Below are positions 9,867-32,000 of a stretch of DNA of 32,000 nucleotides, piece by piece. Numbering within the stretch: position 1 is the first letter of the stretch; each line of letters opens with the position of its first letter. Below the pieces are notes generated by a model. The model did no database searches, was not told where the DNA came from, and was given only the letters and a program-made list of their open reading frames with translations. This DNA comes from Candidatus Electrothrix sp. GW3-4 (GTDB lineage: Bacteria > Desulfobacterota > Desulfobulbia > Desulfobulbales > Desulfobulbaceae): assembly GCF_037902255.1 (NCBI RefSeq), contig NZ_CP147990.1:2430001-2462000 (forward strand). Direction: 5' to 3'. The position numbers were made by a program, and so were the translations under genes.

Positions 9867-10073
9867 ATGACCACAAACACGCAGGCAACACGTCGTCGCA
9901 GGCGGAAAAAAAACAATGTCTGCCATTGTTGCAAAAAAGAACTGCCCTTCTGCTGGAGCTGTAGTTGTGGTTTTGCCATCTGCCCAGACTGTTTTAGCGA
10001 GAATAAATGGGGCATTAGCAACGGCCCCACCTGGATCTGCCCGGACTGTGAACGCATCCATATGATGGAATGA
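9867..10073 (+). CDS. small Cys-rich zinc-ribbon-like protein (68 aa) with an Arg/Lys-rich N-terminus
   Basis: Sequence is MTTNTQATRRRRRKKNNVCHCCKKELPFCWSCSCGFAICPDCFSENKWGISNGPTWICPDCERIHMME. It has 11 Cys, including several CxxC pairs. It sits 17 nt after the ATPase stop, on the same strand. No strong SD was seen. Confidence 0.5.
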   Translation: MTTNTQATRRRRRKKNNVCHCCKKELPFCWSCSCGFAICPDCFSENKWGISNGPTWICPDCERIHMME

Positions 10074-11949: not shown

Positions 11950-13416
11950 TTATGCATCCTCAAGCTCCTTCAGCCGTTTTAAGATGACCTTTGCCTCTTC
12001 CTGCAGTGGCCCAGGGACCTGGGGATCTTTTTCTGCCCTCCTGAGATACTGCTTTGCATATTTTATTCGTCCTTCATAGAGGTAGTACTTTGCCAGGTAA
12101 AAGGTGCTTGCGCCCCGTTCTCCCTGCCCGGATTTGACGCGTGCCAGTTCATAATAGACCTGTGAATATTCCGGTATATTTTTTGCTACCTCAAGATAAA
12201 ATGCCCCTGCCTCCTCAAGCTTTCCCTTTCTGGACATTACGTTGGCGAGTTTAAAAACGCAGTACATATCTGTAGGATCTCGCTGATACATCCTACGCAG
12301 CAAGCGTACAGCCATTTCAAGCTCACCCGAGTCAATATACAGTGCAGCAAGATCGATATCCAAGATATCTCTTCCAGGAAACTCATTCCGCACCATTGCC
12401 AGCTGCCTCTGCGCCTCTTTAAAATTATTTTCCTGGCCACTGAGCAAGGCCAGCCCATAATGAGCCATTGCCGTTTGGACGCTGTCCTCGGTTGATGCCA
12501 GGGTATTAGCGCAATGAATCCGTAAGTCTTCTGGATCCACAGATTGGCTGAGCACCCTATACTTAAAGCGAAGAAAGGGAAAAGCCCCTACATCTTCAGG
12601 AAAGGGTTTCCCCATCTTTCGTCGCTCAATCTCCAACAAAGACTGAACATAGTCCAACCGATCCTCTGGGTTGGGGTGGGTCAAGAGATACGGAGGCAGC
12701 TGTTCGGAACGATAACGGGTAATCCTGCGCATGGATTTCAACATGCTCTCCATTGCTGTCGGATTACGCCCCATGATCCTGAGCCAGCCAAACGCCAGCC
12801 GATCAGCCTGTTCCTCGTCCTGCCGGGAAAAATTCAGCCCTGCTGTCTGATTGGCCGCTAAAGCGCCACTGAAAAGCCCCTGGGTCAAGGCGGGATTACC
12901 TACGGCAAGACTGGCTAAACCAAAGATAAGGCTCGCTGCAGTAACCTTTTCCTGCTTAGCGATACGCCGGGAAAGGTGTCTACTCACAACATGCCCGACC
13001 TCATGGGCAAGCACACTGAGCAACTGATCCTCGGATTGCATGGTTTTTATCAATCCGGAATTAAAAAAGATCAGCCCCGAAGGGGCTGCAAAGGCATTAA
13101 ACTGGTCATTTTTGACCACGAAAAAATGATAATCAAAGTACTGCGGCCCAGCAATGGCAAGGACCTGCTGCCCCAGTTTGTTGATGTATTGGACGATATC
13201 AGGATCATCAAGAAGTTCAAATTCGCTTCGTACAGCAAATAATAATTGTTCTCCGATATCCCTTTCTTCTCCAATACTGAAACCCACGCAAGGGACCGGG
13301 GCAAGGCATTGGCCAGCCCATAAAAAGAAAACAACAGCAACAGTGAGATACGCTTTGCTCAAAACCGATCCACAAAAAAAACGTTGGCGAATCATAAGGT
13401 AACAATTCAGTATCAT
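11950..13416 (-). CDS. M48-family zinc metalloprotease with C-terminal TPR repeats (BepA/YfgC-like)
   Basis: Carries the HEVGHVVSRH zinc motif and a TPR-like C-terminal half. The start is uncertain: ATG 13416 follows GGTGGA with 8-nt spacing, and alternatives are 13395 or 13470. Confidence 0.85.
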   Translation of the reverse strand: MILNCYLMIRQRFFCGSVLSKAYLTVAVVFFLWAGQCLAPVPCVGFSIGEERDIGEQLLFAVRSEFELLDDPDIVQYINKLGQQVLAIAGPQYFDYHFFVVKNDQFNAFAAPSGLIFFNSGLIKTMQSEDQLLSVLAHEVGHVVSRHLSRRIAKQEKVTAASLIFGLASLAVGNPALTQGLFSGALAANQTAGLNFSRQDEEQADRLAFGWLRIMGRNPTAMESMLKSMRRITRYRSEQLPPYLLTHPNPEDRLDYVQSLLEIERRKMGKPFPEDVGAFPFLRFKYRVLSQSVDPEDLRIHCANTLASTEDSVQTAMAHYGLALLSGQENNFKEAQRQLAMVRNEFPGRDILDIDLAALYIDSGELEMAVRLLRRMYQRDPTDMYCVFKLANVMSRKGKLEEAGAFYLEVAKNIPEYSQVYYELARVKSGQGERGASTFYLAKYYLYEGRIKYAKQYLRRAEKDPQVPGPLQEEAKVILKRLKELEDA

Positions 13417-13546
13417 GAAAAAGTTCCACCCTGGAAAAAAATTACCCTGCTCCAAAGGGCAGGGCATCAAACCAAGGCATCTCTTTGTAAAATTTCCCCA
13501 AAGTCACGAGAAGACACAGGCAAGAAGAGATCAGGCCGAAATCAAC

Positions 13547-14947
13547 TCAGGCAGTCCCACTACTAATCCCATTACTAATATAGGGCGCTATTTCTTCCGG
13601 TTTCAGACTGCATTCTTCCATACCCAAGGCCCGAAGTTCCTCAAGAGAACGAGGGAGCAGGCATGAGTCTGGATCCTGCAGGATTATCTTTCCCCCATGC
13701 GTGACAACGGCTTCCATCCCCTCCTTCATATTCTGCTTCACCCCGCTGAGAAAAAGCACCGTTAATGCTGTCCCGAATATCTCGGCAGCAGAACAGAGTA
13801 AACTATCAGTATCAATCAACTGCATTCCGTCATCACTCTCTGGGCCTGTCAACACAGGAATACCGTCGTCAGAGATGATGACTTCTCTCCGCCCGTGACA
13901 ATTGCCTACCAGACATTGCCCACCCAGCAACTTATTTGTTTGAAGCGAGGTCGTGGCAGTGTACTTGGTAAAATTATCAAGGTATGCGGTCAGGTACTGC
14001 TCAATACCTGGATACATATTCTGCAAGACTAATACTGACATATCGTGTTCATACTGTAATGCAGGGATAATCTTCTGCAACTCCAGCATTCCGCCAAGGC
14101 CCCCCAGTATCAACAGCAGCTTCTCTGCTTTTTTTTCTGGCTGTTCCTTGGTTGCGGGATCAACTGGTTTCAATTTCTTGGCCCTGCTGACATTATCAAC
14201 ACAGAACTCTTTAACATTGAGAAGAAGATATTGCAGGCGCTTGCCGATCAGATCCCATGATTCTGGGCTGGTAGGCTTAGCAACCAGATCCACGCATCCA
14301 TAGCGCATAAAATCCATCATTCTCGAATAATGCTGATCATTAAAATTACTGACCAGCACCACTGGTGCTGGGGAGCGTATCATGATATGCTTCAGCGCGA
14401 CATCACCACTCATGACAGGCATAGTCATGTCCAGGGTAACAAGATCCGGGACCTGCATTTCCAAAAATTTCAGCGCCTCTCTCCCGTTTGTTGCCGTCCC
14501 AACCACCTGGGCATTGATCTGTTCTTCAAAGAGCTTAATAAATGCCTTGGTAAAAAAACGGGAATCATCCACCACCAGGACCTTCGGCAAAAGTGACTCT
14601 TCTTCAGAGGGCATTTTGCTTTTGTACTGCTCATCAATACGGCGAGCTGCCTCAAGTAACAGAAAATTCCACGAGGAATCAATGGTCCGGACATTGGTAG
14701 AGGCAAAGAGCATGCTAAAGGTGCCTGAAGGCCAGCTCATAATACGATAAAAGGCCTCTTCTCCGGTTAACTCACCAAATTCAGCATGAATAATTTCATT
14801 ATCAGAAAAATAAAGGACCCCACGATTATCTTCGCTGAGTACACTGAGCTTTCTGTCATCTCCAGCAAGGCAGGCAAACTGAACAAGATCCACTAACCCC
14901 AGCCCTTCAATCTCACCGACAAAACCGCTTCCAACAGGATGTTTCAT
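13547..14947 (-). CDS. three-domain protein: DUF4388 + receiver (REC) + degenerate CheB-methylesterase-like domain
   Basis: The N-terminus GEIEGLGLVDLVQFACL..GVLYFSDNEIIHAEFGELTGEEAFYRIMSWPSGTFSM has the DUF4388 pattern. REC is intact: VVDDS, TLDMTMP (D173), LVAKP (K224). The C-terminal region aligns to CheB but reads LGGLGG where GASTGG is expected, LQNMYP where QHMP is expected, and LSGVKQNMKEG where TGMGxDG is expected. Confidence 0.85.
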   Translation of the reverse strand: MKHPVGSGFVGEIEGLGLVDLVQFACLAGDDRKLSVLSEDNRGVLYFSDNEIIHAEFGELTGEEAFYRIMSWPSGTFSMLFASTNVRTIDSSWNFLLLEAARRIDEQYKSKMPSEEESLLPKVLVVDDSRFFTKAFIKLFEEQINAQVVGTATNGREALKFLEMQVPDLVTLDMTMPVMSGDVALKHIMIRSPAPVVLVSNFNDQHYSRMMDFMRYGCVDLVAKPTSPESWDLIGKRLQYLLLNVKEFCVDNVSRAKKLKPVDPATKEQPEKKAEKLLLILGGLGGMLELQKIIPALQYEHDMSVLVLQNMYPGIEQYLTAYLDNFTKYTATTSLQTNKLLGGQCLVGNCHGRREVIISDDGIPVLTGPESDDGMQLIDTDSLLCSAAEIFGTALTVLFLSGVKQNMKEGMEAVVTHGGKIILQDPDSCLLPRSLEELRALGMEECSLKPEEIAPYISNGISSGTA

Positions 14948-14981: not shown

Positions 14982-15749
14982 TTACAACGCATTAAAGGTG
15001 ACATGTGTTGCGATAAAAACCAACATAAGAACAAAGAATTCTTTAAAATGAGTTTCAGGAACCCTTTGCAGGAGCCTCGATCCCACCTGCGCACCAAGCA
15101 AAACGCCGAGAGCTCCGGGTATAACAACCCGCCATTCTATGCTCCGGCCAAACAGCACATGGACACTCAATGCTGTCACTGAAAGAATCATCATCAGCGC
15201 AATACTGGTCGAAACAGATCGAACCATGGCCAGTTTGCACCGCATATTAAAAAACGGCACCAGCCAATCCCCTACGCCTATCCCAAGAAACCCGGTCAAT
15301 ATGCTGCCAAGCAGGGTTATTAACCGTCCCCGATGCGCTGCTTCAAGATCTGCCGTATCCGAACCTGCAACAAAGAAATCATCTCCGCGAAGAAAGACAT
15401 AGGCAATAAAAAAAATCGTCAGGCCAAGAAAAAGCTCTATCCACACCGGCTGCAGGAGCAAGGAGAGCAATACCCCGAAGATAACAGCAGGGATGCCAAA
15501 AGTAACCAGCAAACGAACGAGCCGCCAATCAATCATCCCGGCTCGATTATTCGTATACGATGCACTGAGCTGACCGAAAAACTGAATCACAAGAGTACAG
15601 ATCACCGCGTCTTTCGGATCCAAGTCCGTGCTCATCAGCAATACGGGCATCCACAGAACCCCACCGCCCAAGCCGAAGAACATAGCGACAGAAGCAATTG
15701 CCACGCCGATTGGTAGCATCTGCCAAAATTCAAAGGCCCCGCCTAACAC
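14982..15749 (-). CDS. TauE/SafE (TSUP) family membrane permease
   Basis: An ~8-TM hydrophobic protein with the family-typical GLGGGVLWMPVLL motif near the N-terminus. The GTG start at 15749 overlaps the upstream stop by 7 nt (alternative ATG at 15719). Confidence 0.85.
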   Translation of the reverse strand: MLGGAFEFWQMLPIGVAIASVAMFFGLGGGVLWMPVLLMSTDLDPKDAVICTLVIQFFGQLSASYTNNRAGMIDWRLVRLLVTFGIPAVIFGVLLSLLLQPVWIELFLGLTIFFIAYVFLRGDDFFVAGSDTADLEAAHRGRLITLLGSILTGFLGIGVGDWLVPFFNMRCKLAMVRSVSTSIALMMILSVTALSVHVLFGRSIEWRVVIPGALGVLLGAQVGSRLLQRVPETHFKEFFVLMLVFIATHVTFNAL

Positions 15750-16321
15750 CGGTAAAAACTCCTGCCGAATTCAGACAAAGCATCTTCCAGCTCATCAAGG
15801 ATCTCCACAGCTTCAGCAACCTTTGTTTCCTGCTCTCCGTCGATCAGGGTCTGGCGAAGCTGCTCACTCATTCCCTTGGCCAAGAGGATCAACTCCTGCT
15901 CATTGGCATTGAGTTCATTAATATGCCGAGCCAAATCGCCGAGTTCATCTCTGCTTTGTTCCGGCAAAGTTGTGGAGAAATCACCAGCACTCATTGCCCT
16001 GGTTCCCTCGATAATGCGCTCCAGGGGAAACATGATTCTCTTGGTGAAGAGCATCATAACCAAACCAATAGCAAGGAGCAGGTTCCCGAGCATTACACGT
16101 ACTTTCAGGAGGATATACTTAACAAGGTCAGCTGACACTTCTGGTGAGGCGATATCATTGAGGGTGCCGAGAATTTTTTCCCCGTAAAGAAAGCTGTTCA
16201 TCTCCACAGCCATCGTCAAAAACACAACTCCGATAAAGACAATATAAAAAACCAACTGGCGCTGCAGCCCGCTTTTCGGCAAAAAACGTTTGAGGACCAT
16301 CTTGTCAAGTTTTTTTATCAA
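15743..16321 (-). CDS. small membrane protein with a HAMP domain and acidic coiled-coil tail (no output domain)
   Basis: Two hydrophobic segments, then a HAMP-like stretch (PLERIIEGTRAMSAGDFSTTLPEQSRDELGDLARHINEL), then ~60 aa of acidic helical tail. It overlaps the PilZ gene by 17 nt if ATG 16321 is the start. Confidence 0.7.
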   Translation of the reverse strand: MIKKLDKMVLKRFLPKSGLQRQLVFYIVFIGVVFLTMAVEMNSFLYGEKILGTLNDIASPEVSADLVKYILLKVRVMLGNLLLAIGLVMMLFTKRIMFPLERIIEGTRAMSAGDFSTTLPEQSRDELGDLARHINELNANEQELILLAKGMSEQLRQTLIDGEQETKVAEAVEILDELEDALSEFGRSFYRC

Positions 16322-16727
16322 GCATTTTCCTCAAATATTTTTTAAAAGCGTGAAGATCATCCTCATAAATATCCTTGAACTGGACCCCAACAGCATATTT
16401 TTCTTCATTGTCGGTCAACTTTTTTGACCAAACCACCTCGGCAACAGCCGTCAAGGGTTTCGACACGACCTGGGCATCAATGATTGCCGCAGTGGTTTGC
16501 AAATAATGTTGCCAGCCGATCAACTCAACAATAAGCTGCAAGATGGTTCCGTTTTTAAACAGCTCATCTGTGGTGAAGCACAGGCCAGTCTCTGAAACAT
16601 TACTGGTATACCCGCTTGTCATATTCACGTTCGTCATCGGGTATTGCAGTTTACCAACACTCAGCTTCACCTGTTTATCGAATCGCGGAGACTTCCTTCT
16701 GCATTTTCCTGTTGTTTTATCCACCAT
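16305..16727 (-). CDS. PilZ domain protein (putative c-di-GMP receptor)
   Basis: Both PilZ motifs are present: RRKSPR (RxxxR) near the N-terminus and NVSETG (D/N-x-S-x-x-G) about 30 aa later. Confidence 0.8.
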   Translation of the reverse strand: MVDKTTGKCRRKSPRFDKQVKLSVGKLQYPMTNVNMTSGYTSNVSETGLCFTTDELFKNGTILQLIVELIGWQHYLQTTAAIIDAQVVSKPLTAVAEVVWSKKLTDNEEKYAVGVQFKDIYEDDLHAFKKYLRKMLDKKT

Positions 16728-16834: not shown

Positions 16835-17869
16835 TTATTGAAGAAGATCATCTATGGTTTCAACATGATCTGTCTTAGCCTTTTTTGCAAACTGCTGGTC
16901 CACCAGACCGTCGATCTTATTATTATCAATCAGCTTATAGCGTACCATCAAATCTGCAATCTCCTGGATTTCTTCCATTTTCGGGAGGTACTGATCATAA
17001 ATTGTACGACCTCCTGATGCATGCAAGGCATACTTCACCAAATCTACAGGCTGGGACCAATATCGGGCCGCAATCTCAGCTGCTTCATCAGGATGCCTTT
17101 CTGCCCATATGCCTGATCGAACCGCCCCATTGACAAATTTTTGGACGAGATCGGGGTCTTGTTCGATCAGGCTTTGCTTGACAATAACAAGATTGCAAAT
17201 GAATGACTTCCAAACCTCCTCAACATTAAAAAGAAGATTTGCCTTGCCGGTTTTCAAGGTCTGGACAGCAAAAGGTTCACCAACATAGTAGGCATCAAGA
17301 GCACCAGTCACTAAGGCAGAGGCCATATCAGGGGGATTGAGCTCCACAATATTGATCTCCCCACGCATATTATTTTCTTCCATCAAGCGCAACAAGCTGA
17401 GATTATGGCCTGAAAAACGCATGGGAACAGCGACCGTTTTACCAGCCAACCCCTGAATATCATGGACATTCAAATCCTTCCTTGTGACAAGGGTACTCTC
17501 ATGCCGATTACCTATATAGACGATCTTGACGTCTACTCCTTGCTGGCGAAGAACAATAGAGAGAGGAGCAATGATGAAGGCTACCTGAATCTTGTCATTC
17601 CGAAGCGCCTCCCCCATCTCAGCAAAGGAACTGAATTTTAAGGCCTTAAATCGAACATCGCTCTCGTTGGTGCTGGCATAATCAAGCAAGGGTGCCGCCA
17701 TATTAGTGATAACAGGCATATAGCCCATTTTCACAATCTGTTGGTGGCCGTGATCAAAATTCAGCCACCAGTGAAGTCCAGAGATGAGCACTCCCCAGAC
17801 AACACTCCCTAAAACAAAACTCCAGGTTCTTGACCAGGTGAACTTCTTCTTTCCATTATTAGACGGCAT
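16835..17869 (-). CDS. NitT/TauT-family (NMT1-like) ABC substrate-binding protein with an N-terminal membrane anchor
   Basis: The overall pattern matches nitrate/sulfonate/bicarbonate-type binding proteins. The N-terminus WSFVLGSVVWGVLISGLHWWL looks like an uncleaved TM anchor. The start overlaps the ATPase stop by 11 nt. Confidence 0.8.
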   Translation of the reverse strand: MPSNNGKKKFTWSRTWSFVLGSVVWGVLISGLHWWLNFDHGHQQIVKMGYMPVITNMAAPLLDYASTNESDVRFKALKFSSFAEMGEALRNDKIQVAFIIAPLSIVLRQQGVDVKIVYIGNRHESTLVTRKDLNVHDIQGLAGKTVAVPMRFSGHNLSLLRLMEENNMRGEINIVELNPPDMASALVTGALDAYYVGEPFAVQTLKTGKANLLFNVEEVWKSFICNLVIVKQSLIEQDPDLVQKFVNGAVRSGIWAERHPDEAAEIAARYWSQPVDLVKYALHASGGRTIYDQYLPKMEEIQEIADLMVRYKLIDNNKIDGLVDQQFAKKAKTDHVETIDDLLQ

Positions 17870-18653
17870 AGCTCACTCCAAGCATCAAGAAGAGTTCGTC
17901 TCGGAGTTTACTCAACTCTGTTTGTTTGTTAAAGACAATTCTCGGATGGGGAAAATCCAGCTTACGGTTCATTTTTACCTGTGAGGGGCGTTTACTGAAG
18001 ACCACCACCCGATCCCCCATGATGAGCGCATCATCGATATCATGGGTCACGATAAGAATCGTTTTCCCAAGGAACTGATGCATATTTACCACCTCTTCCC
18101 GCATTTTCATATGGGTGAGAAAGTCAAGCCCACTAAAAGGCTCATCCATGATCAGGACATCAGGGTTGACAGCCAAGGCACGGGCCAGCTCTGCCCGTCG
18201 CTGCATCCCTCCTGAGAGCTGGCGCGGATAATGGTTTTCAAAGCCATCCAACTCCACCATTTCAATATATTCCTGGATCTCTGTCTTCTTTTCGTCGGCA
18301 TTCTCCATGTGTCGCAGCCCCAGTTCCACATTCTGCCAAACGGTCATCCACGGCAAAAGGCCGCTGTGCTGAAAGACAAAGATATTATCTGAACTCGGAC
18401 CGGTAATCTCTTTGCCGTCAATAAGAATGGACCCCGAGGTCTGTTTATCAAAGCCAGCGATGATACGGAGAAGTGTCGATTTACCGCAGCCAGAAGGACC
18501 GAGCAGGCAGACCATTTCCCCTTCTTCCACTTCAATATTGACATTGTCAAGCACAGAAACCTTTTCGCCATAGGGAAGTCCATCATCCTCGCGCTTTCTC
18601 TTTCTTCGGTTGACAAACTCTCTGCTCAGATTATTGATCTGAATATGTCCCAT
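17859..18653 (-). CDS. NitT/TauT-family ABC transporter ATP-binding protein
   Basis: Carries Walker A GPSGCGKSTLLRIIAGF, the signature LSGGMQRR, Walker B LIMDEPFSGLD and the H-loop VTHD. Confidence 0.9.
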   Translation of the reverse strand: MGHIQINNLSREFVNRRKRKREDDGLPYGEKVSVLDNVNIEVEEGEMVCLLGPSGCGKSTLLRIIAGFDKQTSGSILIDGKEITGPSSDNIFVFQHSGLLPWMTVWQNVELGLRHMENADEKKTEIQEYIEMVELDGFENHYPRQLSGGMQRRAELARALAVNPDVLIMDEPFSGLDFLTHMKMREEVVNMHQFLGKTILIVTHDIDDALIMGDRVVVFSKRPSQVKMNRKLDFPHPRIVFNKQTELSKLRDELFLMLGVSYAV

Positions 18654-19468: not shown

Positions 19469-20380
19469 TTATCCGGCAAGCTCCCGGGCTAGGGCCTGAT
19501 ACTGCTCAGCAGATCTACTCTTTTCATCGTAGTATTGAATAGGAAGATTAACGATGTGTGACTCCTGCATCTTATCGTCGAGCTCAATAACCGTTTTACA
19601 GAGCATCGCTCCGTACTTACGATGAATCTTTTCATTGACCACCCGCTCCGATGTCTTCTTTGCATCAAACATGGTGATAAGAACCTTATATTCGACATCA
19701 TGGTCAATCCCCTTCAATACTTTAATAATGTCGCTAATTTGGGACACGCCGTGCATTGAAAGATATTCGCATGTGGTCGGCACGATAACGAGTTGTGCGG
19801 CCATCAGGGCATTTAAGGTAAAAAACTCTATCGATGGCGGAGTATCTATCAAGATATGGTCATAATTTTTTTCAATCTCCTGTAATTTGTTTCGCAGTAA
19901 ATACTCAAAATTATGCTGGCTCAAATAACGTTTTTTCAGCAACGCCATCTTACTGTTCGAGGGAAGTAAGGACAGGTTAGGATATTTCGTGTGGAGAATA
20001 ATATCACCTATCCCCTTAACCTCTTTGTTTAATAACTCATAAAAGGATCGAGTCTTTCTAAAGCCCAGCAGTATTGTCAAATTCGCCTGCACATCAAAGT
20101 CAACCAACAACACCTTCTTCCCCATGCGTGCTAAGGCCGCTGCCAAATTAAGGCAGGTGGTTGTTTTGGCAACCCCGCCTTTCTGGTTACTCACGGTAAT
20201 AATACGGTGATCATCCGGGGCTACTTCATCCTGCAGGAGGAAGGAATCATCAGCAGGGTCATTTTTGTACACCGTAAACCTATGATTACACTTGTGACAT
20301 CGCACCTTCAATGCCGGTTTATTAATTATATCGTCAGCAACCCTATACCTGGTTTTGCAATTGTCGCATGTAATAATCAT
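19469..20380 (-). CDS. ParA/MinD-family ATPase with an N-terminal MJ0042-type zinc ribbon
   Basis: The N-terminus MIITCDNCKTRYRVADD..VRCHKCNHRFTV has two CxxC pairs in the MJ0042 pattern. It is followed by the deviant Walker A ITVSNQKGGVAKTTTCLNLAAALA and LLVDFDVQANLT, typical of ParA/Soj. Confidence 0.85.
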   Translation of the reverse strand: MIITCDNCKTRYRVADDIINKPALKVRCHKCNHRFTVYKNDPADDSFLLQDEVAPDDHRIITVSNQKGGVAKTTTCLNLAAALARMGKKVLLVDFDVQANLTILLGFRKTRSFYELLNKEVKGIGDIILHTKYPNLSLLPSNSKMALLKKRYLSQHNFEYLLRNKLQEIEKNYDHILIDTPPSIEFFTLNALMAAQLVIVPTTCEYLSMHGVSQISDIIKVLKGIDHDVEYKVLITMFDAKKTSERVVNEKIHRKYGAMLCKTVIELDDKMQESHIVNLPIQYYDEKSRSAEQYQALARELAG

Positions 20381-20733: not shown

Positions 20734-21771
20734 CTAGCGGATAACTGACTCAATCACCTCAGCAAGCTTTGCTTCTTCAGTAACCAAATCCACTTTATTT
20801 CGCTTAATTGCAGTATCAGTCAGGCTGGGATACACACAGGTCTCGACACTTTGCGCTATAGTCTTACCGGATTTTTCCTGAATCGCGGCAAACCCTTCCG
20901 ATCCGTCCTCCCCGTATCCTGTGAGCAAAACACCAACGGTATTTTCCCTGAACACCTCAGCAGCTGAGCGAAAGAAGGTATCGAGCGGATTCTCCACTCG
21001 ATCACCAAGCTGAAAACAGGGGTCTCCGTTTTCGTTGAGTCCAACGGTCAGGGAAGCCATATTCGATTGAATATAGCAGACCCCCTGCTCCAGGACTGTC
21101 CCCTGACGAGCCACTTCTATTTTCCAGCGGACAAATTCGTTGAATTTGTCCGCAAAGGCAGCAAGGATTTTGGGAGAAATTTCCAGAAGAATAACAGCAG
21201 CGGCAGGCAGACCGGCATTAAGCCTGGTCATCAGACGAATAAAGGTATTGGGGCCAGTTAACGAAGTTCCTATGGCAATAAGATAGTCAAGGGGGTGAAA
21301 ACCATACAGGTCAGCAAGGCCTTCCTCCTTTTTGTGTTTATAGATCCGGACTCGGCGTATATTCTGAAAATTAACAGCTGAAGCAAGCTTGATGCGGTCA
21401 ACAATATGCTGTTTGGCTGTATGAATATCGCTCGATATTGCCCCAGAGGGTTTTGCAACAAAATCGACAACCCCAAGTCGGAGGGCTTCAAAGGTGATAG
21501 ATCCGTCACTGAAGAGCGAGCTCAGCACAACGATAGGAACCGGAGATTCAATCATGATATGGCGGACGGCCTGCAGCCCGTCCATGACCGGCATATCAAT
21601 GTCAAGCGTGATGACATCAGGATGAAGTTCCTTTATTTTTTCTAGCCCCTCCAGGCCGTTGTTTGCAACCCCAACCACTTCGATATCAGGGTCTGATTCC
21701 AGCAGATCACTGATCGCCTTGGTCATAAAGGTTGCATCGTCAACAACAAGAACCTTAAGTTTTTTATCCAT
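20734..21771 (-). CDS. REC-CheB-like protein (methylesterase domain lacking the catalytic His)
   Basis: REC is intact (VVDDATF, ITLDIDMPVMDG, DFVAKP). The C-terminal domain aligns to CheB. IGTSLTG keeps the Ser, LLEISP replaces QHMP (His to Glu), LTGYGEDG keeps the Asp, and TCVYPSLT replaces SCVVFGMP. The start is set at ATG 21771 (MDKKLKVLVVDD). Confidence 0.85.
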   Translation of the reverse strand: MDKKLKVLVVDDATFMTKAISDLLESDPDIEVVGVANNGLEGLEKIKELHPDVITLDIDMPVMDGLQAVRHIMIESPVPIVVLSSLFSDGSITFEALRLGVVDFVAKPSGAISSDIHTAKQHIVDRIKLASAVNFQNIRRVRIYKHKKEEGLADLYGFHPLDYLIAIGTSLTGPNTFIRLMTRLNAGLPAAAVILLEISPKILAAFADKFNEFVRWKIEVARQGTVLEQGVCYIQSNMASLTVGLNENGDPCFQLGDRVENPLDTFFRSAAEVFRENTVGVLLTGYGEDGSEGFAAIQEKSGKTIAQSVETCVYPSLTDTAIKRNKVDLVTEEAKLAEVIESVIR

Positions 21772-21873
21772 ACCGCAGCTTCCCCCCGTTCTGGAATCCA
21801 TCACGTAACAATATTATTTCGCTGTCGTTTTTGTCACCGGTTCTAATCTTTCCTAATCTGCCTGACAGAAAGC

Positions 21874-24800
21874 TTAATGAACCGGCTGTGGTGTCTCCGT
21901 AGCACTGCCTTTTTTCCGTTTAAAATTCAACGAACGCTGTTCCTGGCGAACGACTTGGTTTTCTTTTGCTATTTTTACAAGCTCAGGGATATCCAAAATA
22001 AGGGAAATACCACCGTCACCCAGAATAGTCGCACCGCCGAAGCCGCTTTCAACCCTCAGGTAATCGGCAAGCGGCTTAATAACCACCTCTTCCTGACCAA
22101 GAAGTTCATCAACAACGATGCCCAACTCCTGGGTTCCGGTACTCACCACGACAACAAACATCTTGTCTTCATCCTGCCCTTGGCGATCAATATTATAAAT
22201 TCTGGCAAGCTGAAAAATAGGCATTGTATTATCACGAAGATGAATAACATCAACACCTTCTATTTCGGAAATCTCATCCCGGAAGACCCTCAGGGTTTCC
22301 TCAACCGTGGTCAGAGGAATGGTAAATTTCTCCTGACCAACCCGCACCATCAAGGCCTGAATAATAGCCATGGTGAGCGGAATCTTGATGCGAAGCCGTG
22401 TTCCTTTTTCTGCCTCAGAAATAATTTCAACGGTACCGTTCAACTTCTCGATATTCTTCTTCACCACGTCCATGCCCACGCCACGGCCGGAAGTTTTGGT
22501 CGCCTTTTCAGCCGTACTGAAACCAGGCAACATAATCAGGCGCGTCAACTCCTGATCAGACATCCGCATCACTTCTTCCTTCCTGATAAGGCCTTTTTCC
22601 AGGGCCTTTGCCTTGATTCTCCTTGTATCAAGCCCCCTACCGTCATCGGTGATCTCCAGCACAATATGATCACTCTCGTGGAAGGCCTCAAGAAGGAGCG
22701 TTCCCTGAGCAGGCTTACCTACCCGCAGACGCTCCTCAACCGTTTCGATGCCGTGGTCAACAGAGTTTCTGATAATATGAATCAAGGGATCTGAGATAGA
22801 CTCAATGACCATCTTGTCAAGCTCAGTTTCCTCACCTTTGGTAACCAGCTTAACATCCTTATCCGTGTTATGGACTAAATCTCGTACCAAACGAGGATAG
22901 CGCTTAAAAAGCTGGTCAATGGGCAACATTCTGACCTTCATTACCCCTTCCTGCAGTTCATTGGATACACGGCCGAGATGAACACCTGCCTCGCTCAGAC
23001 GGAAAGAAAACTCATGAAGCGGCTTCAGTTGACTTTTTGTAACCCCCGAGGACTCAAGCAGCTGCTGCTCCAACCCTCGCATCTCATTAACAAGCTGAGC
23101 AAAGTAGGCCCTGCTTACAACCAGCTCTCCAACCTGATTCATGAGATAATCAATTTTCTCAGCATCTACCCTGATGCTGCTGCGCACAGTTGCTTTTTGG
23201 GCAGGCCCCTGCCTGTTTTCTTCCTCCTCAGCATGCTGCTTAAGGACCTCGGATTTTATAAAATCCAGTGTATCATCGGCTGAGCCAGGTACCTCGCTTT
23301 TTTCTTCAGCAACGTCCTCAGTGAGAGGTGCTTCCAGGGCATCATCATGCTGATCATCCCTGTTCTCCATTTCATCATCAGCTGCTGCCGCTTCAATCGC
23401 ATCTGCTCCATTTGAGGCCACAACCTTATCTAATAAATGACCGCCTGCCCCCAACGCAGGGGTCTCTGCTCTGTCATCAGGAGTTGCTGACTGCTCCATC
23501 CCAGCCTCTGCCCGTGCACCTTGACCATGTTCTCCTTCCTGCTCTGGAGCTTCTATAATCTCTTCTATAACGCTGTCTATGGAATCCTCTGAAACGCCAG
23601 CTGCATATTCCGACACCTCTAAGGCACTGCTGAGCTTATCAAAAAGCGCCTTTTCTTCGGAACCGCCACCATCACCATGATCAGTTTGGTCCGTGCTCCC
23701 TTCAGGAGTTCTTCTTTCTGGCTCTGGCTTATCAGCCTCTCCCTTGTCGTCTCTCTTCTCCTCGGGAACGCCCGCAACAGAGACATCATCCCCCCCTTGT
23801 GAGCTAGCAAAAGCGACCATACCCTTGTCGGCTCCAGAAAAAGTCTCATCATTTCCAAAACCTCCATTTTCTTCCCCGGAGAATTCACCGAGCTCTTGTT
23901 GCCCACCATCCCCGATAATCTGAGGATATACCCCGATGATCTTATCAACAAACTCCTGTAGCCCGGCAATGATATCCGATGCAATACCGGCGGAGACATC
24001 AGCAAGATATCCTTCAACAACACTCTGCCATAGCTCGCAAAAAGATGTCAGGCTGGCATACTCCATATAATTGGCTGACGAGGCGAGGTGTCCAATAGCA
24101 TCATGACAATTATTGAGTATTGTTTTTTTATCACCACCTGCCTGGTATTCTCCAATCCTGGCCTGGATATATTCAATATCGGTCTTTAATTTCTTCAGAA
24201 AAATAGAAATCAGCTCTTCGTCATACTCATCATCGGAAAGTTCGTTATTAAGGGAAAGGGCTTCTACGTTAGGTTCTTCCCGAAGTGAACCATCAGGATC
24301 CATTGCAGATATGGAAGCGGCCTCCTCACCTGGCATCTCACCATCCAGGCTGAGGATATCCCCCCCCTTTTCTCCAGCTTCAGACATCCTGGGGTGTTCA
24401 TCAGAAAATATCGAATCCAAGGCCCGGTCAAGATCAATACCCTGAGTTTCCCCCTCTTCTTCTGGCTGATCATCGCAGGTTCCGTCATCGAGCTCAATAA
24501 GACTCTCTGAAACAACAGCTGGCTCCTCATCGGAAAAAATGGAATTCAGGGCTGAATCAATAGAGGCTGTATCATGTTTTTCTTCTCCTGAGTTATCAGC
24601 GAGTATATCTGCATCATCCTGCGAATAGCCCTCCATTGCCTGGGGAAATGAACGGATTATCTCGTCCAGATAATCCTGCATGAATGAGAGGTTAGGCATT
24701 CTGCCACTTGAGAGCTGCTCAACCGCATTCTCAATAGCATGCTGCCAGTTGGAATAATGCTGGGTAAGCTTTTCATAGCCCATATAGTTGGCAGACGACT

Positions 24801-25446
24801 TAAGACTTTTGATGGAGTCGCTGCAGCGGTACAGAACATCCTGCTTGTCCACAGAGATAGACAGTTCAACGGTCTGGGCATAGAGAAAGGGGATGTTTTC
24901 TTTCAGCTGCTGAAGAAATATATTATACAGTTCCTCATCATACTCATCAGACATGTTTTCTTCAGCGAGAAGACCTGTCCTCACTACTTCTGGGTCCTCC
25001 TCAGGAGGCTCATCTTCTCCAGAGGCTGTGTCGTCGGGTATCCTCTCATCTTCAGCTGCCTCCGTATCGCCTTCAACAACTCGCCGTATCTGCTCTACAA
25101 GATCAGACACCTCGGTCTCCTCGGCCTGGGTACGCTCAAGTTCGTCAACCAAGAGCGTTATCCGGTCTTTACCGGCAATCAGCAGGTCCGTAATGGCCGT
25201 ATTCAGCGTAATCTCGTTGCGACGAATAAGGTCAAGCAGATTTTCCAGTTTATGAGACAGTTCAGAAACTCGCTCAATACCAACGAATTGAGCCGCTCCT
25301 TTGATGGTATGGATGGAACGAAAAATTTCATCCATCACCTCTTTATCTTCATAATCCTGTTCAAGCCGGAGAAGACTGCTTTCCATCTCTTCAAGATGTT
25401 CAGCTGCCTCAACAATAAAATCCGGTAACATTGATGAGTCTATCAT
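21874..25446 (-). CDS. cheA: chemotaxis histidine kinase CheA, unusually long (~1190 aa), with one canonical and two degenerate Hpt-like modules
   Basis: Hpt P1 is FRSIHTIKGAAQFVG (His49). P3 is IRVDAEKIDYLMNQVGELVV. P4 has DPLIHIIRNSVDHGIE, DDGRGLD and GRGVGMDVV. A C-terminal CheW-like P5 is present. About 650 aa between P1 and P3 consist of acidic linkers plus two paralogous helical modules. ATG 25446 follows GGTGGA; the ORF is open from GTG 25455. Confidence 0.92.
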   Translation of the reverse strand: MIDSSMLPDFIVEAAEHLEEMESSLLRLEQDYEDKEVMDEIFRSIHTIKGAAQFVGIERVSELSHKLENLLDLIRRNEITLNTAITDLLIAGKDRITLLVDELERTQAEETEVSDLVEQIRRVVEGDTEAAEDERIPDDTASGEDEPPEEDPEVVRTGLLAEENMSDEYDEELYNIFLQQLKENIPFLYAQTVELSISVDKQDVLYRCSDSIKSLKSSANYMGYEKLTQHYSNWQHAIENAVEQLSSGRMPNLSFMQDYLDEIIRSFPQAMEGYSQDDADILADNSGEEKHDTASIDSALNSIFSDEEPAVVSESLIELDDGTCDDQPEEEGETQGIDLDRALDSIFSDEHPRMSEAGEKGGDILSLDGEMPGEEAASISAMDPDGSLREEPNVEALSLNNELSDDEYDEELISIFLKKLKTDIEYIQARIGEYQAGGDKKTILNNCHDAIGHLASSANYMEYASLTSFCELWQSVVEGYLADVSAGIASDIIAGLQEFVDKIIGVYPQIIGDGGQQELGEFSGEENGGFGNDETFSGADKGMVAFASSQGGDDVSVAGVPEEKRDDKGEADKPEPERRTPEGSTDQTDHGDGGGSEEKALFDKLSSALEVSEYAAGVSEDSIDSVIEEIIEAPEQEGEHGQGARAEAGMEQSATPDDRAETPALGAGGHLLDKVVASNGADAIEAAAADDEMENRDDQHDDALEAPLTEDVAEEKSEVPGSADDTLDFIKSEVLKQHAEEEENRQGPAQKATVRSSIRVDAEKIDYLMNQVGELVVSRAYFAQLVNEMRGLEQQLLESSGVTKSQLKPLHEFSFRLSEAGVHLGRVSNELQEGVMKVRMLPIDQLFKRYPRLVRDLVHNTDKDVKLVTKGEETELDKMVIESISDPLIHIIRNSVDHGIETVEERLRVGKPAQGTLLLEAFHESDHIVLEITDDGRGLDTRRIKAKALEKGLIRKEEVMRMSDQELTRLIMLPGFSTAEKATKTSGRGVGMDVVKKNIEKLNGTVEIISEAEKGTRLRIKIPLTMAIIQALMVRVGQEKFTIPLTTVEETLRVFRDEISEIEGVDVIHLRDNTMPIFQLARIYNIDRQGQDEDKMFVVVVSTGTQELGIVVDELLGQEEVVIKPLADYLRVESGFGGATILGDGGISLILDIPELVKIAKENQVVRQEQRSLNFKRKKGSATETPQPVH

Positions 25447-25591
25447 ATTCTCCACCTTGTAACTCTCTGATTATTCTTATATCCAGAACACATACCAACT
25501 ATCCGGTGCCTTCCTCAGCCGTAACCAGCACGCTCTTTTTGCGTCTTTCTCACATTTTCCAGCCAATCAGCAACAAATATTTCCTTTCAGC

Positions 25592-26221: not shown

Positions 26222-26460
26222 AGGCGACAAATCCGTTTTAAGATGAATTTTGTGGCGACCAGCAAAAACCGTCCCCCACTACACTGCCCGCAATTTTCTC
26301 CAAGGTCATGAGACGTTACATCTGTACCCTATCAATCTCCCCATGTTCAACATACGCTCTACGCAAGGTCTTCTTCTCTATAGAAGGTCATGAACGAAAA
26401 TACCGTAAAGACAGCTACCGTATACCCTCACAGTATACCCACGGTCCCGGTGGTCGGGAT

Positions 26461-26826
26461 CTAGTCCTCTGCTTCCGATTTCTCTATCATCTCCAAAATC
26501 TCTCTCGCCTTATGCTTGCTGGCAAAGCCCCTTGCTCCAAGGGCCTCAACTTCAGCCCGGTATATATCTTCATCAAGATTTGAAAGGAAGATGATATGGG
26601 CGTCGCTGTCATAGCGTAAAATCTCCTTTGCAGCAGCAAGGCCATCCATTTCACGCATAGTGATATCCATAGTAACGATATCGGGCTTCAGAGACTTATA
26701 TAACTCAATAGCCTCCAGGCCATTTTTCGCCTGCCCCACCACAATATGGCCCGGCGGCTGTAACAGTTTTGCGATCATCTTACGCATCATAGATGAATCA
26801 TCAACTATCAGAACTCGCTTACTCAT
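26461..26826 (-). CDS. cheY: single-domain response regulator CheY
   Basis: A 121-aa stand-alone REC with LIVDDSSMMR, VTMDITMREMDG and the receiver fold pattern. It lies 4 nt downstream of cheW. Confidence 0.9.
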   Translation of the reverse strand: MSKRVLIVDDSSMMRKMIAKLLQPPGHIVVGQAKNGLEAIELYKSLKPDIVTMDITMREMDGLAAAKEILRYDSDAHIIFLSNLDEDIYRAEVEALGARGFASKHKAREILEMIEKSEAED

Positions 26827-27523: not shown

Positions 27524-30500
27524 TTAGAGCTTAAACTGCTCAACCTGATGACGCAGTCTCTCAGAAGCAGCCTGCAACTCATCGGTAATGGACACAACCA
27601 CACCAGCGCCCTCAACCGTTTTTTGCGCTCCTTCAAAGGACTGTTGGGCAATCCTGACCGCATTCTGCGAACGCTCACCCTGAGCAGCAACCAATTCACT
27701 GAGCTGATCAGTACGACCCACAATCTCACGCATTTCAGAGTCAATGGCACTGGAACCGGCACTTGCTTCCGATACCAGGGCACTAATGATCTGAGACTGC
27801 TGAACCATAGAGGAAAGCGCTGACTCAGCTGCCTGACGACGAGCACCCTGCTCACCAGCCATCTTGGAGATCTCTTCTGCCAATTTGTTCAGTTCCTGAA
27901 CCAGGGTCTGGACGCTCTGGATATCGCCTTCAACAACCTGAGCAACCGCTGCAATCTCCTCAATGGAGCGCATATTATTACGACCGCTGGCGTCAATCTT
28001 GGAAAGAGCGTCCTGCAGTTCTTCAGAGTACCGTGTTCCTGCCTCAACGCTGGCAGCAGAATCTTTAATCAGCTGGGTAATCTCCTTGGCAGCTTCAGAG
28101 GAACGCTGCGCCAGTTTACCAACCTCGTCAGCAACAACCGCAAAACCCTTACCATGGGCACCGGCACGGGCAGCCTCAATAGCGGCGTTCAGGGCCAGCA
28201 GGTTTGTCTGCTCGGCGATTTCTGTAATAACGCCGATGATTTCAGAGATCTGACCAGAGGACTCGGCAATAGCCCGCATACCAGCAACCGTGTTTTCCAC
28301 CGCTGCCCGACCATCACTGGCTGCCTCCAGAGCCTCCTGACCCTGAGCCGTGGCAGCCTCTACCGCCTGGCCCATGTTCCGAACAGCTGCGGTAATCTCA
28401 TTCATGGATGCGGTCACCTGCATAACCATTTTACCCTGCTCATTGGAGGTGGACACAACCATGGCACCGGTTTCACCCATGGCACCCACACGATCAGTGG
28501 CGGTTTCCGCTTCCTCGGACTGTTTGATAACCGCGTCACTCACCGTATCCATGGATTGGAGCAGCTCTGCAATGGTTTGCTGAGAACGCTGCGCACTCGC
28601 CTGCTGCGCCTTGGCACCTTCAGCAACCTGACCCGCGGTCTGTCCCATGGTCTGGAGCAGCTCTCTGGTTTTCTCGGACTGCTGGGCCTCAACCTCAGCA
28701 CGATCCCTGTTCGCAGATGCACGACCAGCCACATTATCAGCGTTGGCAGCAACGGCCTGGGATACGGTCTGGACCTCGGAGAAGGCCGCGTTCAACTCAA
28801 CCAGCATATTGTTAAATTCGTCCGCCATCTGACCAATCTCATCAGTGGAGGTCGTCTCTACCTTCAGGGTGAGGTCACGTTCCGCAGCAACCTGACGAAC
28901 AACGTCAGCGATACGCACAATCGGGCGGGCAAAACCACCCCCAACAAACCAGGCAACAGCGAACACGATGACCGCAATAACAAGACCAATACCCAGGGCC
29001 TGGAGGCGCAGGGTGGTGATAGCGGCTAGGGCCTCGTCCACATCGATCTTGGCCTCAATCAACCAGTCAAAATCCGTATTCAGGGCCTTGGGCAGGTCCA
29101 GCTTAACAGCAGAGGAGAGAATAGGAACCCCCCGGTAATCCACAGATCGTTCCGTTACACCGGTATCAGAGCGGAAGGCGTCCGCAACAATGGTCGAGGT
29201 CAGTTTGGATTCAAACAGGGTCAGGCCCAGGCGGGAATCAGAGCGGGTCAGATGATCCTCACCCACGAGAAAGGACTCACCCTTCTCACCCAGACCGGCG
29301 CGCTGATCAACCAGGGCCTGGATATCGTCGTTGGTCAGACGGATCGCCACGATGGAAACCAATTGGCCCTGCTGAACAACCGGGGCCGCCACAAAGGCCA
29401 GGGGCTTATTGGCCGGGGCATAATGGGCGTAGTCCGTCATGGCTGTGCGGCGGGTCTCCTTGACCTGGCGGACCAGACGACCCAGGCCAGTGTCTTTCAG
29501 ATCCCCGGTCATGAGATTATTATGGTATTCCTGTTCCTTCTTGACCGAGTAATAGCAGTATCCGTTCGGCTCAATGAGATAGAGGTCAAAATAGTTATAG
29601 CCCTTCTGAACCTTGGTCAACAGGTCCTCGGTCTCCCCCTCATGGGTCGGGTTCATAACATCGGCCAGGGGACCGGTGGTGATCAGACCCCAGCGAAGAC
29701 CAGAAATATCCACCGTTGTATAGGTGGACAGCTCAAAGTCGCCGGTACTACCAACCTTGTACATAACGCCTGACTTGCCAGCCAAGGCCGCCTCGGAATC
29801 CTTGCCCGGTTTCAGATCACCGATCCGGCCCTCTTTGACCACGCGGTCAGAGTGCAGCTTAGGTGCGCCAGGATCACCGACCAGGTAGGACTCAAAGGTC
29901 TCAACCATCCCCTCACGCTCCTGGACAATGGCGTTGATCTCCTGGGAGGAGAGCTGGAAGGCCCCCACCCCGAGGAAGCGTCCTCCCTCCATAATCGGGG
30001 CCCCGAGAAAGAGGGACTGCTGATTATTAGACGGGGCATAGGCGCTATAATCCTCAAGAGCTGCCTTTTTCTCTACCTTGATCTTGGCAAAGAGGCGACC
30101 CAGCCCGGAATTGCGCAAGGCACCGTCCTCCACGTTCTGGCCCAGATCAGACTCACCAGCATGGGTGTAGACTACATCCCCATCGGCAGCAATGAGAAAG
30201 ACGTCGTAATAGCCATGCTCTTCGACAAAGGAGGCAAACATGGGGCCGTATTTCTCTTTATAGCCGTTCCAGAGGCTGCCGCCAACCTTGCCCCCCTCTT
30301 CATGAAGGGCCTCGCCAAACTCCTGGATGGCGTTCTGGGTACTGAGGTTTTTCGTCATCATGGTGGCGTCAGAAAAACGCTTGCCAAAATAGCGCTCCAG
30401 GGCCGCTTTCTTCAAGGCCTCAATACCCAGTGTCTTCGCAACAGCATCGGCACGAAGACCCTGAATAACCTCAGAGACCATCTCAATATCAGCATAGGCC

Positions 30501-30718
30501 TCCCCCAGGTAATCCACAATCTGTCCTTTTTTCAGGTCGCGGATACCCTCCAGCTGGTTATCAGCACGTGCCTCCAGGGCCTTGGCCGCCTGCAACTGGT
30601 CAACAAAGGCGTTGACCAGAAAGGGCAAAAGACCAACGGCGAGCATGATCGCAACCAGCTTACCGCGAAGTCCCAGACCTCCAAACCAGCCGGAAGTCGT
30701 CCTCTTCAAATTTTTCAT
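27524..30718 (-). CDS. methyl-accepting chemotaxis protein with two tandem Cache-like periplasmic modules, HAMP and a very long signalling domain
   Basis: TM1 is at ~20-38. The periplasmic region of ~535 aa holds two paralogous modules ([30 protein letters not shown] and [31 protein letters not shown]). TM2 is at ~575-596. HAMP is [28 protein letters not shown]. The conserved hairpin is [39 protein letters not shown] strong SD (GGAGGAGGGG) precedes the ATG. Confidence 0.92.
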
Positions 30719-30925: not shown

Positions 30926-32000
30926 TCAGGCAGCCATTTCCCCTGCCGAGCTCGCCAGCACGGCCTCAATACTCTTGGGAATTCCCGTATCTGCCAGCAG
31001 TTTGGCCCCAGGGCAGCGGGCTGCTACGGCCCCGGGCATCTCCCGGTACAGGCTCCCTGCCGGATCCTGGACAATCCCGGTCCCACCGACCCGCAAGACC
31101 TCCTCCATCCCCTCTCCTCCATCCTCACCCATCCCGGACAGGACAACAGCCACACTTTTCTCTTTTATTCGCTCGGCCACAGAGTAGAAGAGCATATCTA
31201 TTGACCCCCTGCGCGTGGCAAAAGGGGCTTGAGAAAGATGGAGCACCAATTCCCCCTCCAGCTCATGTACGGTCAGGTACTCATCGCCTGAGGCAAAATA
31301 GCAGACCCCGGCTTCAATCCGGGCGTTATTCTCTGCCCGCCGGATAATCAAGGGGGAAAGCCGGTTGAGATACTTAACAAAGGAATCCAGATGGCGAGAA
31401 GGGGCATAGAACATCACCAGGTATGCCACAGGAAACTGGGCAGATAAATGAGGCAGGAGCTTGAGTAAGGCCCCGTAACCGCCTTCTGCAACGCCCAGGG
31501 CGACAAGCCGTTCGCAGCGCTGACCTGCAAGGGCAAGCGCATCTTTCTTTTCCTGACTCACGGCCCGCACATATTTCACCGCCTCCAGCTCAACTTCCGC
31601 TGCCAGACGCACCTTACGCTCGATCTCGCTGGTCTGCTCCTCAAGATTTATCTCTCCGGTATTCGAGGGCTTAGCAACAAAATCCACTGCCCCGTATTTC
31701 AAGGCATCAAAGGTAACGTCAGCCCCTTCTACAGTCATTGAGCTCAACATCACGGTAGGAGTAGGGGCCTGGATCATCAGGTGTTTGATCGTTGTCAGGC
31801 CATCCATAACCGGCATTTCCACATCAAGGGTCACCACGTCTGGTTTGAGCTGGGGAATGATCTGCAACGCCTCTTCCCCGTTCTCTGCTTCGCCAACAAC
31901 TTCCACAACAGGGTTGTCTTTAAAGATATTGGCAATGACCTTTCGCATCATTCTGGAGTCATCGACAATAAATAAATTAATCTTCTGATCAGCAGCCTTT
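30926..32000 (-). CDS. REC-CheB-like protein (catalytic Ser and His both replaced); 5' end outside the window
   Basis: The reading frame stays open to the window edge (..KAADQKINLFIVDDSRMMRK), so the true start lies beyond 32000. REC is intact (IVDDS, VTLDVEMPVMDG, DFVAKP). In the CheB-like domain, GVAEGG replaces GASTGG (Ser to Ala), VMFYAP replaces QHMP (His to Tyr), and LSGMGEDG keeps the Asp. Confidence 0.85.
   Translation of the reverse strand, partial: KAADQKINLFIVDDSRMMRKVIANIFKDNPVVEVVGEAENGEEALQIIPQLKPDVVTLDVEMPVMDGLTTIKHLMIQAPTPTVMLSSMTVEGADVTFDALKYGAVDFVAKPSNTGEINLEEQTSEIERKVRLAAEVELEAVKYVRAVSQEKKDALALAGQRCERLVALGVAEGGYGALLKLLPHLSAQFPVAYLVMFYAPSRHLDSFVKYLNRLSPLIIRRAENNARIEAGVCYFASGDEYLTVHELEGELVLHLSQAPFATRRGSIDMLFYSVAERIKEKSVAVVLSGMGEDGGEGMEEVLRVGGTGIVQDPAGSLYREMPGAVAARCPGAKLLADTGIPKSIEAVLASSAGEMAA

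Follow-up and report, generated by a model that had tools for sequence, protein, structure and literature searches.

CheB, which is among the best-understood signalling enzymes, and the PatA-type regulators of cyanobacteria are the described proteins closest to the one reported here. The PATAN domain (DUF4388) of the PatA-type regulator PixE of Synechocystis binds PilB1 and PilC and is alone sufficient to reverse phototaxis (bioRxiv 10.1101/2021.06.11.447907). PATAN genes are found near mglA/mglB, and in the chemosensory pathway of Myxococcus xanthus response regulators act on the MglA/MglB switch and on the placement of the pilus ATPase (PMC4316618). Gliding and oxygen taxis are both known from cable bacteria; the mechanism is unknown, although type IV pili are suspected of taking part (PMC12163305, PMC7873302). 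A stretch of 32,000 nucleotides (nt) from the cable bacterium Candidatus Electrothrix sp. GW3-4 (NZ_CP147990.1, positions 2,430,001-2,462,000), referred to here in its entirety as the window and used as the frame for all coordinates unless another locus is named, was analysed with respect to a gene that encodes a PATAN domain, a receiver (REC) and a CheB-like domain lacking the CheB catalytic residues. With slightly better than even confidence, we propose that its product is a non-enzymatic regulator that is phosphorylated by CheA and carries CheA activity to the pilus or polarity machinery.

Domain architecture and active site

The gene and the domains of its product were positioned as follows.

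13547..14947, minus strand: PATAN-REC-pseudoCheB gene; ATG start, 466 amino acids (aa), orthologues at 90-26% identity
14627..14917, minus strand: DUF4388/PATAN domain, residues 11-107 (Pfam PF14332, 57 bits, E 2e-15)
14261..14581, minus strand: receiver (Response_reg), residues 123-229 (Pfam PF00072, 62 bits, E 8e-17)
13577..14110, minus strand: CheB-like domain (CheB_methylest), residues 280-457 (Pfam PF01339, 63 bits, E 3e-17)

A preliminary description of the locus had proposed this three-domain architecture, with a CheB_methylest match expected at residues ~275-460. Both proposals were borne out by the Pfam scan, in which all three matches exceeded the Pfam gathering scores and the CheB_methylest match was significant and spanned the full length of the profile (positions 3-174 of 174). 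The PATAN domain is a short form, with 97 residues versus the 122 positions of the Pfam profile. As in PatA-type regulators it is N-terminal and followed by a receiver with a conserved Asp; the protein departs from a two-domain PATAN-REC layout in that a further, CheB-like domain of 190 residues lies C-terminal to the receiver. The NCBIfam CheB models aligned end to end with residues 122-431 at 142.5 bits (cut-off 293) and 122.9 bits (cut-off 342). As these scores fall far under the cut-offs, the receiver and the C-terminal part were regarded as CheB-like and not as a bona fide CheB.

Alignment to Salmonella typhimurium CheB (1A2O) by phmmer and MAFFT confirmed that all three catalytic residues are lost. 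Ser164 of 1A2O corresponds to Gly283 in the motif LGGLGG (codon 14099-14101), His190 to Asn310 in LQNMYP (codon 14018-14020, exactly where the preliminary description had placed an Asn) and Asp286 to Asn406 in LSGVKQNMKEG (codon 13730-13732), so that the Ser/His/Asp triad of a functional CheB is replaced by Gly/Asn/Asn. The receiver carries the canonical residues D127, D128, D173, S200 and K224, with Asp173 (codon 14429-14431) as the putative phospho-acceptor.

An AlphaFold2 model of the protein, computed from a 63-sequence alignment, had a mean predicted local distance difference test score (pLDDT) of 89.8 and a predicted template modelling score (pTM) of 0.75, with low confidence confined to the termini and the PATAN-REC linker (residues ~108-121). 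In a Foldseek search the modelled REC and CheB-like part superposed on full-length CheB (6YMZ/1A2O) with an E value of 1e-24 at 21% identity and a target-normalised template modelling score of 0.75-0.80. No match to the PATAN part was found in the PDB among the 50 matches listed, all of which were CheB or receiver structures. The predicted domain arrangement matches that of inactive CheB. Both the profile match to PF01339 and the fold match mark the protein as CheB-derived, and its residues at the triad positions indicate that it is incapable of the serine-hydrolase mechanism.

Distribution of the family and conservation of the degenerate site

The closest homologues, at 90-66% identity, belong to Candidatus Electrothrix and Electronema. 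Of 120 database clusters listed, those of full length showed this set of three Pfam domains throughout, down to 38% identity. Scanning one genome per species gave 80 loci that nearly all matched from query residue ~5 to ~455, down to 26% identity, and every named taxon among these was a member of Desulfobacterota. Carriers include Electrothrix, Electronema, Desulfobulbus, Thermodesulfatator, Dissulfuribacterales, Syntrophobacteraceae and Desulfococcus as well as Desulfosarcina alkanivorans, D. widdelii, D. cetonica and Desulfonema limicola. When a library of representatives at 50% identity was searched with a profile, at least 67 of the top 150 matched contiguously across all three domains. 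A frequent variant of ~600 aa has an extra N-terminal receiver, giving the order REC-PATAN-REC-CheB. Judged by these searches, the PATAN-REC-CheB architecture is moderately common within one phylum. Another unusual CheB architecture was seen in P0254 (823 aa) and P0258 (999 aa), which combine an N-terminal Ser/Thr protein kinase with CheB_methylest and two receivers.

The change of the nucleophile from Ser to Gly is family-wide. The Ser164 position was Gly without exception in the 120 database homologues listed and in roughly 70 of the 80 genome homologues, none of which had an intact Ser/His/Asp triad. At the His190 position N, D, Q or E was found in the database homologues, with a single His (P0108); across the genome loci this position held N, D, Q, E, S or T, with His kept in L050. 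The Asp position held D, N, S, G, Q or E across the genome loci, and the Asp-to-Asn change seen in Electrothrix sp. GW3-4 is common only to its closest relatives, most members having Asp or another residue. As the Ser nucleophile and the His have been lost in nearly all members examined, the CheB-like domain cannot be a serine hydrolase. The family-wide Ser-to-Gly change led us to reject the possibility that the triad degenerated by accident in a single lineage. The receiver was canonical in the 120 database homologues listed and read DDDSK in nearly all of the 80 genome loci, a few of which have Glu as the first acidic residue. Where the sources name these proteins they are labelled "chemotaxis response regulator CheB", "protein-glutamate methylesterase" or "response regulator". 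CheB and methylesterase labels on catalytically dead members are misleading, and neither the presence nor the absence of methylation-based adaptation in Desulfobacterota should be deduced from them.

Six residues of the CheB-like domain are invariant (G283, G285, E289, G402, Q424 and L430). Four of these sit in what are active-site loops in CheB, with G283 and G285 belonging to the nucleophile elbow, G402 to the LTG loop and Q424 to the AQ(N/D) motif. The conserved polar residues E289 and Q424, along with the near-invariant K292, Y322, S401 and E451, would be in keeping with a cryptic enzyme, that is, a hydrolase or deamidase working through different catalytic residues, as would the His that persists at the triad position in P0108 and L050. 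We nevertheless consider an enzyme of this kind very improbable, given that Gly occupies the nucleophile position in essentially all members with no conserved pair of Ser or Cys and His to substitute, that the His and Asp positions vary freely, and that there is no CheR near the gene to make methyl-ester substrates.

Selection on the three domains was evaluated from the ratio of nonsynonymous to synonymous substitution rates (dN/dS, omega) by the Nei-Gojobori method among cable-bacteria orthologues. Omega was 0.01-0.08 for PATAN, 0.004-0.04 for REC and 0.04-0.15 for the CheB-like domain, values that are approximate since dS is near saturation in several pairs. In terms of these ratios all three domains are under selection, and for the CheB-like domain this selection is clearly purifying, though it evolves faster than PATAN and REC. 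That the domain is a decaying relic, a functionless remnant of a once-active CheB, would agree with the loss of all catalytic residues and with this faster evolution relative to the neighbouring domains. Omega of about 0.1 and not about 1, a match to the Pfam profile over its full length, a confidently modelled fold and retention across Desulfobacterota down to 26% identity make such decay scarcely credible.

Linkage to CheA and to pilus and polarity genes

The gene lies at the distal end of a chemosensory cluster on the minus strand of the window, the other features of which are listed here.

13443..13466, minus strand: terminator-like GC-rich hairpin and T-run 3' of the PATAN-REC-CheB stop codon
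14982..15749, minus strand: TauE/TSUP membrane protein, 34 nt upstream of the PATAN-REC-CheB gene (Pfam; in 30/91 loci including Desulfosarcina)
15743..16321, minus strand: membrane-anchored HAMP-only protein, 192 aa (Pfam; in 31/91 loci)
16305..16727, minus strand: PilZ protein with RxxxR (RKSPR) and NxSxxG (NVSETG) motifs (Pfam; all cable-bacteria loci)
16835-17869, minus strand: NMT1-like binding protein of an ATP-binding cassette (ABC) transporter of NitT/TauT type (Pfam)
17859-18653, minus strand: ABC ATPase, NitT/TauT-type transporter (Pfam)
18666-19445, minus strand: ABC permease (Pfam; 64-72% identity between cable bacteria and Desulfosarcina)
19469..20380, minus strand: Zn-ribbon and ParA/MinD-type ATPase, ZnParA (Pfam; in 42/91 loci)
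20734..21804, minus strand: REC-CheB-like paralogue 'a', triad Ser/Glu/Asp with the His lost (Pfam, alignment)
21874..25455, minus strand: CheA, 1193 aa, likely cognate kinase (Pfam)
25592-26230, minus strand: HAMP protein (Pfam)
26461-26826, minus strand: CheY (Pfam)
26831-27343, minus strand: CheW (Pfam)
27524..30718, minus strand: methyl-accepting chemotaxis protein (MCP; dCache-HAMP-MCPsignal), C-terminus ...EQFKL (Pfam)
30926..32000 and past the window edge, minus strand: REC-CheB-like paralogue 'b', triad Ala/Tyr/Asp (Pfam, alignment)

Transcription thus proceeds in the order 'b', MCP, CheW, CheY, HAMP, CheA, 'a', ZnParA, ABC permease, ATPase and binding protein, PilZ, HAMP, TauE and finally the PATAN-REC-CheB gene. 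The close spacing of the last genes in this series had been anticipated (gaps of 34 nt or less, or overlaps) and was measured as a 17-nt overlap between PilZ and HAMP, a 7-nt overlap between HAMP and TauE and a 34-nt gap between TauE and the PATAN-REC-CheB gene. The hairpin and T-run that follow its stop codon mark the latter as the last gene of its transcription unit. An M48-TPR peptidase open reading frame (ORF; 11950-13470, minus strand) has a listed TTG start that overlaps this hairpin, and its true start is therefore probably further downstream.

Three observations extend the preliminary description: the other two REC-CheB genes are degenerate as well, no CheR was identified in the 32 kb window by Pfam annotation, and the family is tied to CheA, including through a putative fusion. 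Paralogues 'a' and 'b' of the window both lack an intact set of residues at the Ser164, His190 and Asp286 positions. The ORF of 'b' extends upstream past the edge of the window (...INLFIVDDSRMMRK). Proteins of 586-620 aa are the closest relatives of 'b' (L010 11400-13160 and L011 7712-9574), and as that of L011 is a REC-PATAN-REC-CheB protein, the first gene of the cluster may encode, outside the window, a second PATAN domain. The window CheA is unusually long at 1193 aa (relatives range from ~890 to at least 1578 aa) and has ~650 residues without a Pfam match between Hpt (9-107) and the dimerisation domain (759-841).

Co-occurrence of these genes was assessed by tblastn over all 91 fetched loci, and the clusters were found to be of two types. 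The CheA kinase domain was present in most of the sufficiently long loci. The string of ten genes from CheA to the PATAN-REC-CheB gene is kept in all sufficiently long cable-bacteria loci, Electronema (L009) among them, as well as in a relative at 57% identity (L010). Type II clusters, found in cable bacteria, Desulfobulbaceae and Desulfosarcina, have the gene accompanied by ZnParA, HAMP, TauE and the ABC transporter. The complete genomes of D. alkanivorans and D. widdelii have MCP, degenerate CheB 'b', CheW, others, CheA, PATAN-REC-CheB, ZnParA, HAMP, TauE and ABC, with the orthologue directly 3' of cheA and with MglA and MglB after the ABC transporter on the opposite strand. Type I clusters, found in Dissulfurirhabdus, Thermodesulfatator and related metagenome-assembled genomes, have MglB, MglA, a hypothetical gene and a PilB-like ATPase (TPR-MshEN-T2SSE) on one strand, and HDOD-HD, degenerate REC-CheB 'a', degenerate REC-CheB 'b', PATAN-REC-CheB, CheY and CheA on the divergent strand. 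All three CheB-type paralogues of type I combine a degenerate triad with an intact receiver, 'a' and 'b' being seen in L001 and L005-L008.

The connection to polarity and motility regulators that had been suggested for proteins of this kind is accordingly reflected in MglA/MglB and the PilB-like ATPase as conserved neighbours in distant members. The proposed association with PilZ, HAMP and TauE genes also held: HAMP and TauE stay linked out to Desulfosarcina (~32% identity), and PilZ, whose motifs for binding cyclic di-GMP (c-di-GMP) are intact, is mainly confined to the cable-bacteria clade. In type I clusters the HDOD-HD protein and the MshEN-domain ATPase, in place of PilZ, also suggest c-di-GMP input.

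The putative fusion, P0193 (1809 aa), joins CheA (Hpt, dimerisation, HATPase, CheW) to PATAN-REC-CheB, a missed stop codon being the alternative. Every cluster examined has two or three dead-CheB paralogues whose receivers are intact, and no CheR lay within 10 kb in the loci that have precomputed Pfam annotation. Gene linkage to CheA, CheW and MCP is conserved, as expected of a chemosensory regulator, and the comparison of loci identifies the PATAN-REC-CheB gene as an integral and ancient component of a chemosensory cluster centred on CheA.

Several further features of the clusters were noted. The NitT/TauT-type ABC transporter, TauE/TSUP and the HAMP-only protein are retained inside the cluster across Desulfobacterota (L045 12418-16403). 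A chance insertion of ABC, HAMP and TauE genes between the che genes and the PATAN-REC-CheB gene was considered and rejected, as the same set is kept, reordered, in Desulfosarcina. By analogy with ParC-type ATPases, the Zn-ribbon ParA/MinD ATPase may be responsible for placing the chemosensory array. All type I clusters encode a conserved protein of 530-577 aa without a Pfam match between mglA and the PilB-like ATPase gene (L001 3844-5577, minus strand; L005-L008). Downstream of an ABC ATPase gene, at 9867-10073 on the plus strand of the window, is a 68-aa Cys-rich ORF that contains several CxxC pairs and is reminiscent of a zinc ribbon.

Proposed signalling role of the protein

If the receiver alone mattered, the protein would be a phosphate sink that drains phosphoryl groups from CheA and so shapes CheY signalling, the other domains serving only to position the receiver close to the kinase. 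Strong conservation of the receiver residues, the presence of several receiver proteins per cluster and the putative CheA fusion P0193 are all consistent with such a sink. Single-domain CheY sinks suffice in other systems, however, and a sink has no need for a conserved CheB fold of 190 residues or for a PATAN domain as constrained as the receiver (omega 0.01-0.08). We regard this role as improbable.

A receptor-array docking or feedback adaptor, which extends the docking role suggested in the preliminary description, was also weighed. Here the dead CheB would bind the adaptation region of the receptor stoichiometrically, gated by phosphorylation, and would tune the kinase so that adaptation is free of methylation; all three paralogues would act in this manner and PATAN would merely localise one of them. 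What makes this attractive is that the dead domain recurs without PATAN and that CheR is absent locally. It is in line with the location of four of the six invariant CheB-like residues (G283, G285, G402, Q424) in active-site loops, with the presence in each cluster of two or three dead CheBs that keep their receivers intact, in the absence of a nearby CheR, and with purifying selection on the CheB-like domain. On the other hand, the window MCP has no NWETF-type pentapeptide tether at its C-terminus, the conserved glycine loops are needed in any case for the fold and the receiver interface, and constraint on the CheB-like domain is far weaker than on PATAN and REC. Docking is in our estimation possible but unlikely.

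The simplest reading is a phospho-switch leading from CheA to the pilus or polarity machinery, and the balance of the evidence inclines modestly towards it. CheA would phosphorylate Asp173 of the CheB-type receiver, a step suggested by the intact receiver, by adjacency to cheA and by the putative CheA fusion P0193. Since the model matches full-length CheB, the receiver would be expected to pack on the former active-site face of the C-terminal domain and to be released from it upon phosphorylation, as in CheB. The CheB-like domain, with the CheB fold and the glycine-rich loops retained, could then serve as a receiver-gated binding or regulatory module for which the receptor or CheA are candidate partners; alternatively, it may be only an autoinhibitory partner of the receiver. 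The role of this dead domain is the least certain step of the mechanism. PATAN is probably the output domain, by analogy with the PixE PATAN that binds PilB1/PilC and because PATAN genes lie near mglA/mglB, and would relay the phosphorylation state to the type IV pilus motor or to MglA/MglB components. The neighbourhood link between PATAN and mglA/mglB was reproduced for the present family, with a PilB-like ATPase in addition. In filamentous cable bacteria the result would be that gliding is biased or reversed.

Several points count against the phospho-switch. No mglA, mglB or pilB-like gene was found in the 32 kb window. The short form of the PATAN domain (97 vs 122 positions) may not behave like the PATAN of PixE. 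The two paralogues that lack PATAN share the dead CheB, which implies a function of the dead domain that is independent of PATAN and that the model leaves unspecified. Besides the near saturation of dS in several pairs, there is the faster evolution of the CheB-like domain, at about 5-10 times the rate of PATAN and REC, so that this domain may have a small or purely structural role.

A wider scheme would accommodate both array binding and PATAN output. In this scheme Desulfobacterota, cable bacteria among them, have a chemosensory pathway in which adaptation by methylation has been replaced: two or three dead, phospho-gated CheBs bind receptors or CheA stoichiometrically while the PATAN paralogue physically connects the array with the type IV pilus or the MglA polarity machinery and thereby controls when centimetre-long filaments reverse as they glide in oxygen-sulfide gradients. 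We put this forward as a tentative conjecture of rather low probability.

Comparison with known systems

The preliminary description had allowed for the architecture being common and already characterised. It is common within one phylum, but no description of a PATAN-REC-CheB protein or of a catalytically dead CheB was found in the literature, in a search that excluded most subscription journals; the papers that emerged treat PATAN and MglA in general terms, and one on che clusters of Geobacter makes no mention of PATAN or PilZ. A family of conserved pseudo-CheBs with a fused PATAN, belonging to a system that has two or three dead CheBs and lacks a CheR nearby, thus appears to be undescribed, as we found no characterisation of it. 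Systematic loss of CheB catalysis with the domain kept would be surprising to a specialist, although the evidence for it is purely comparative. Conserved dead CheBs without a nearby CheR would constitute a new design of feedback or output, and the family would offer a molecular handle on the steering of gliding in cable bacteria, for which no mechanism is known.

CheV, a phosphorylatable array adaptor composed of CheW and REC, is comparable in concept. It likewise unites a receiver with a module derived from the chemotaxis core, which could couple phosphorylation to array binding and to adaptation that is free of methylation. There is no sequence relationship outside the receiver, the domain order is reversed and array binding by the PATAN-REC-CheB protein is putative. 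The Frz/RomR/MglA-MglB system of M. xanthus resembles the present one in that mglA and mglB are conserved neighbours of the family. It differs in having no PATAN-REC-CheB protein and in possessing an active CheR/CheB pair (FrzF/FrzG), and mglA and mglB were not seen in the Electrothrix window.

The similarity to CheB (PF01339; 1A2O, 6YMZ) is closer, comprising a receiver, a linker and an alpha/beta CheB fold in the same order and che-gene neighbours (CheA, CheW, MCP), whereas the Gly/Asn/Asn triad, the extra N-terminal PATAN, the lack of a CheR in the cluster and the score under the NCBIfam cut-off set the protein apart. PatA-type regulators (PixG, PixE and PilG of Synechocystis; PatA of Anabaena) share the N-terminal PATAN followed by a receiver, the occurrence in chemotaxis-like clusters without CheR and a family link to type IV pilus motility. 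In comparison with these, the protein has a third, CheB-like domain, a receiver of CheB type and a short PATAN, and occurs in Desulfobacterota as opposed to cyanobacteria. The PATAN-REC-CheB protein resembles a hybrid of CheB and a PatA-type regulator and is a strict member of neither group.

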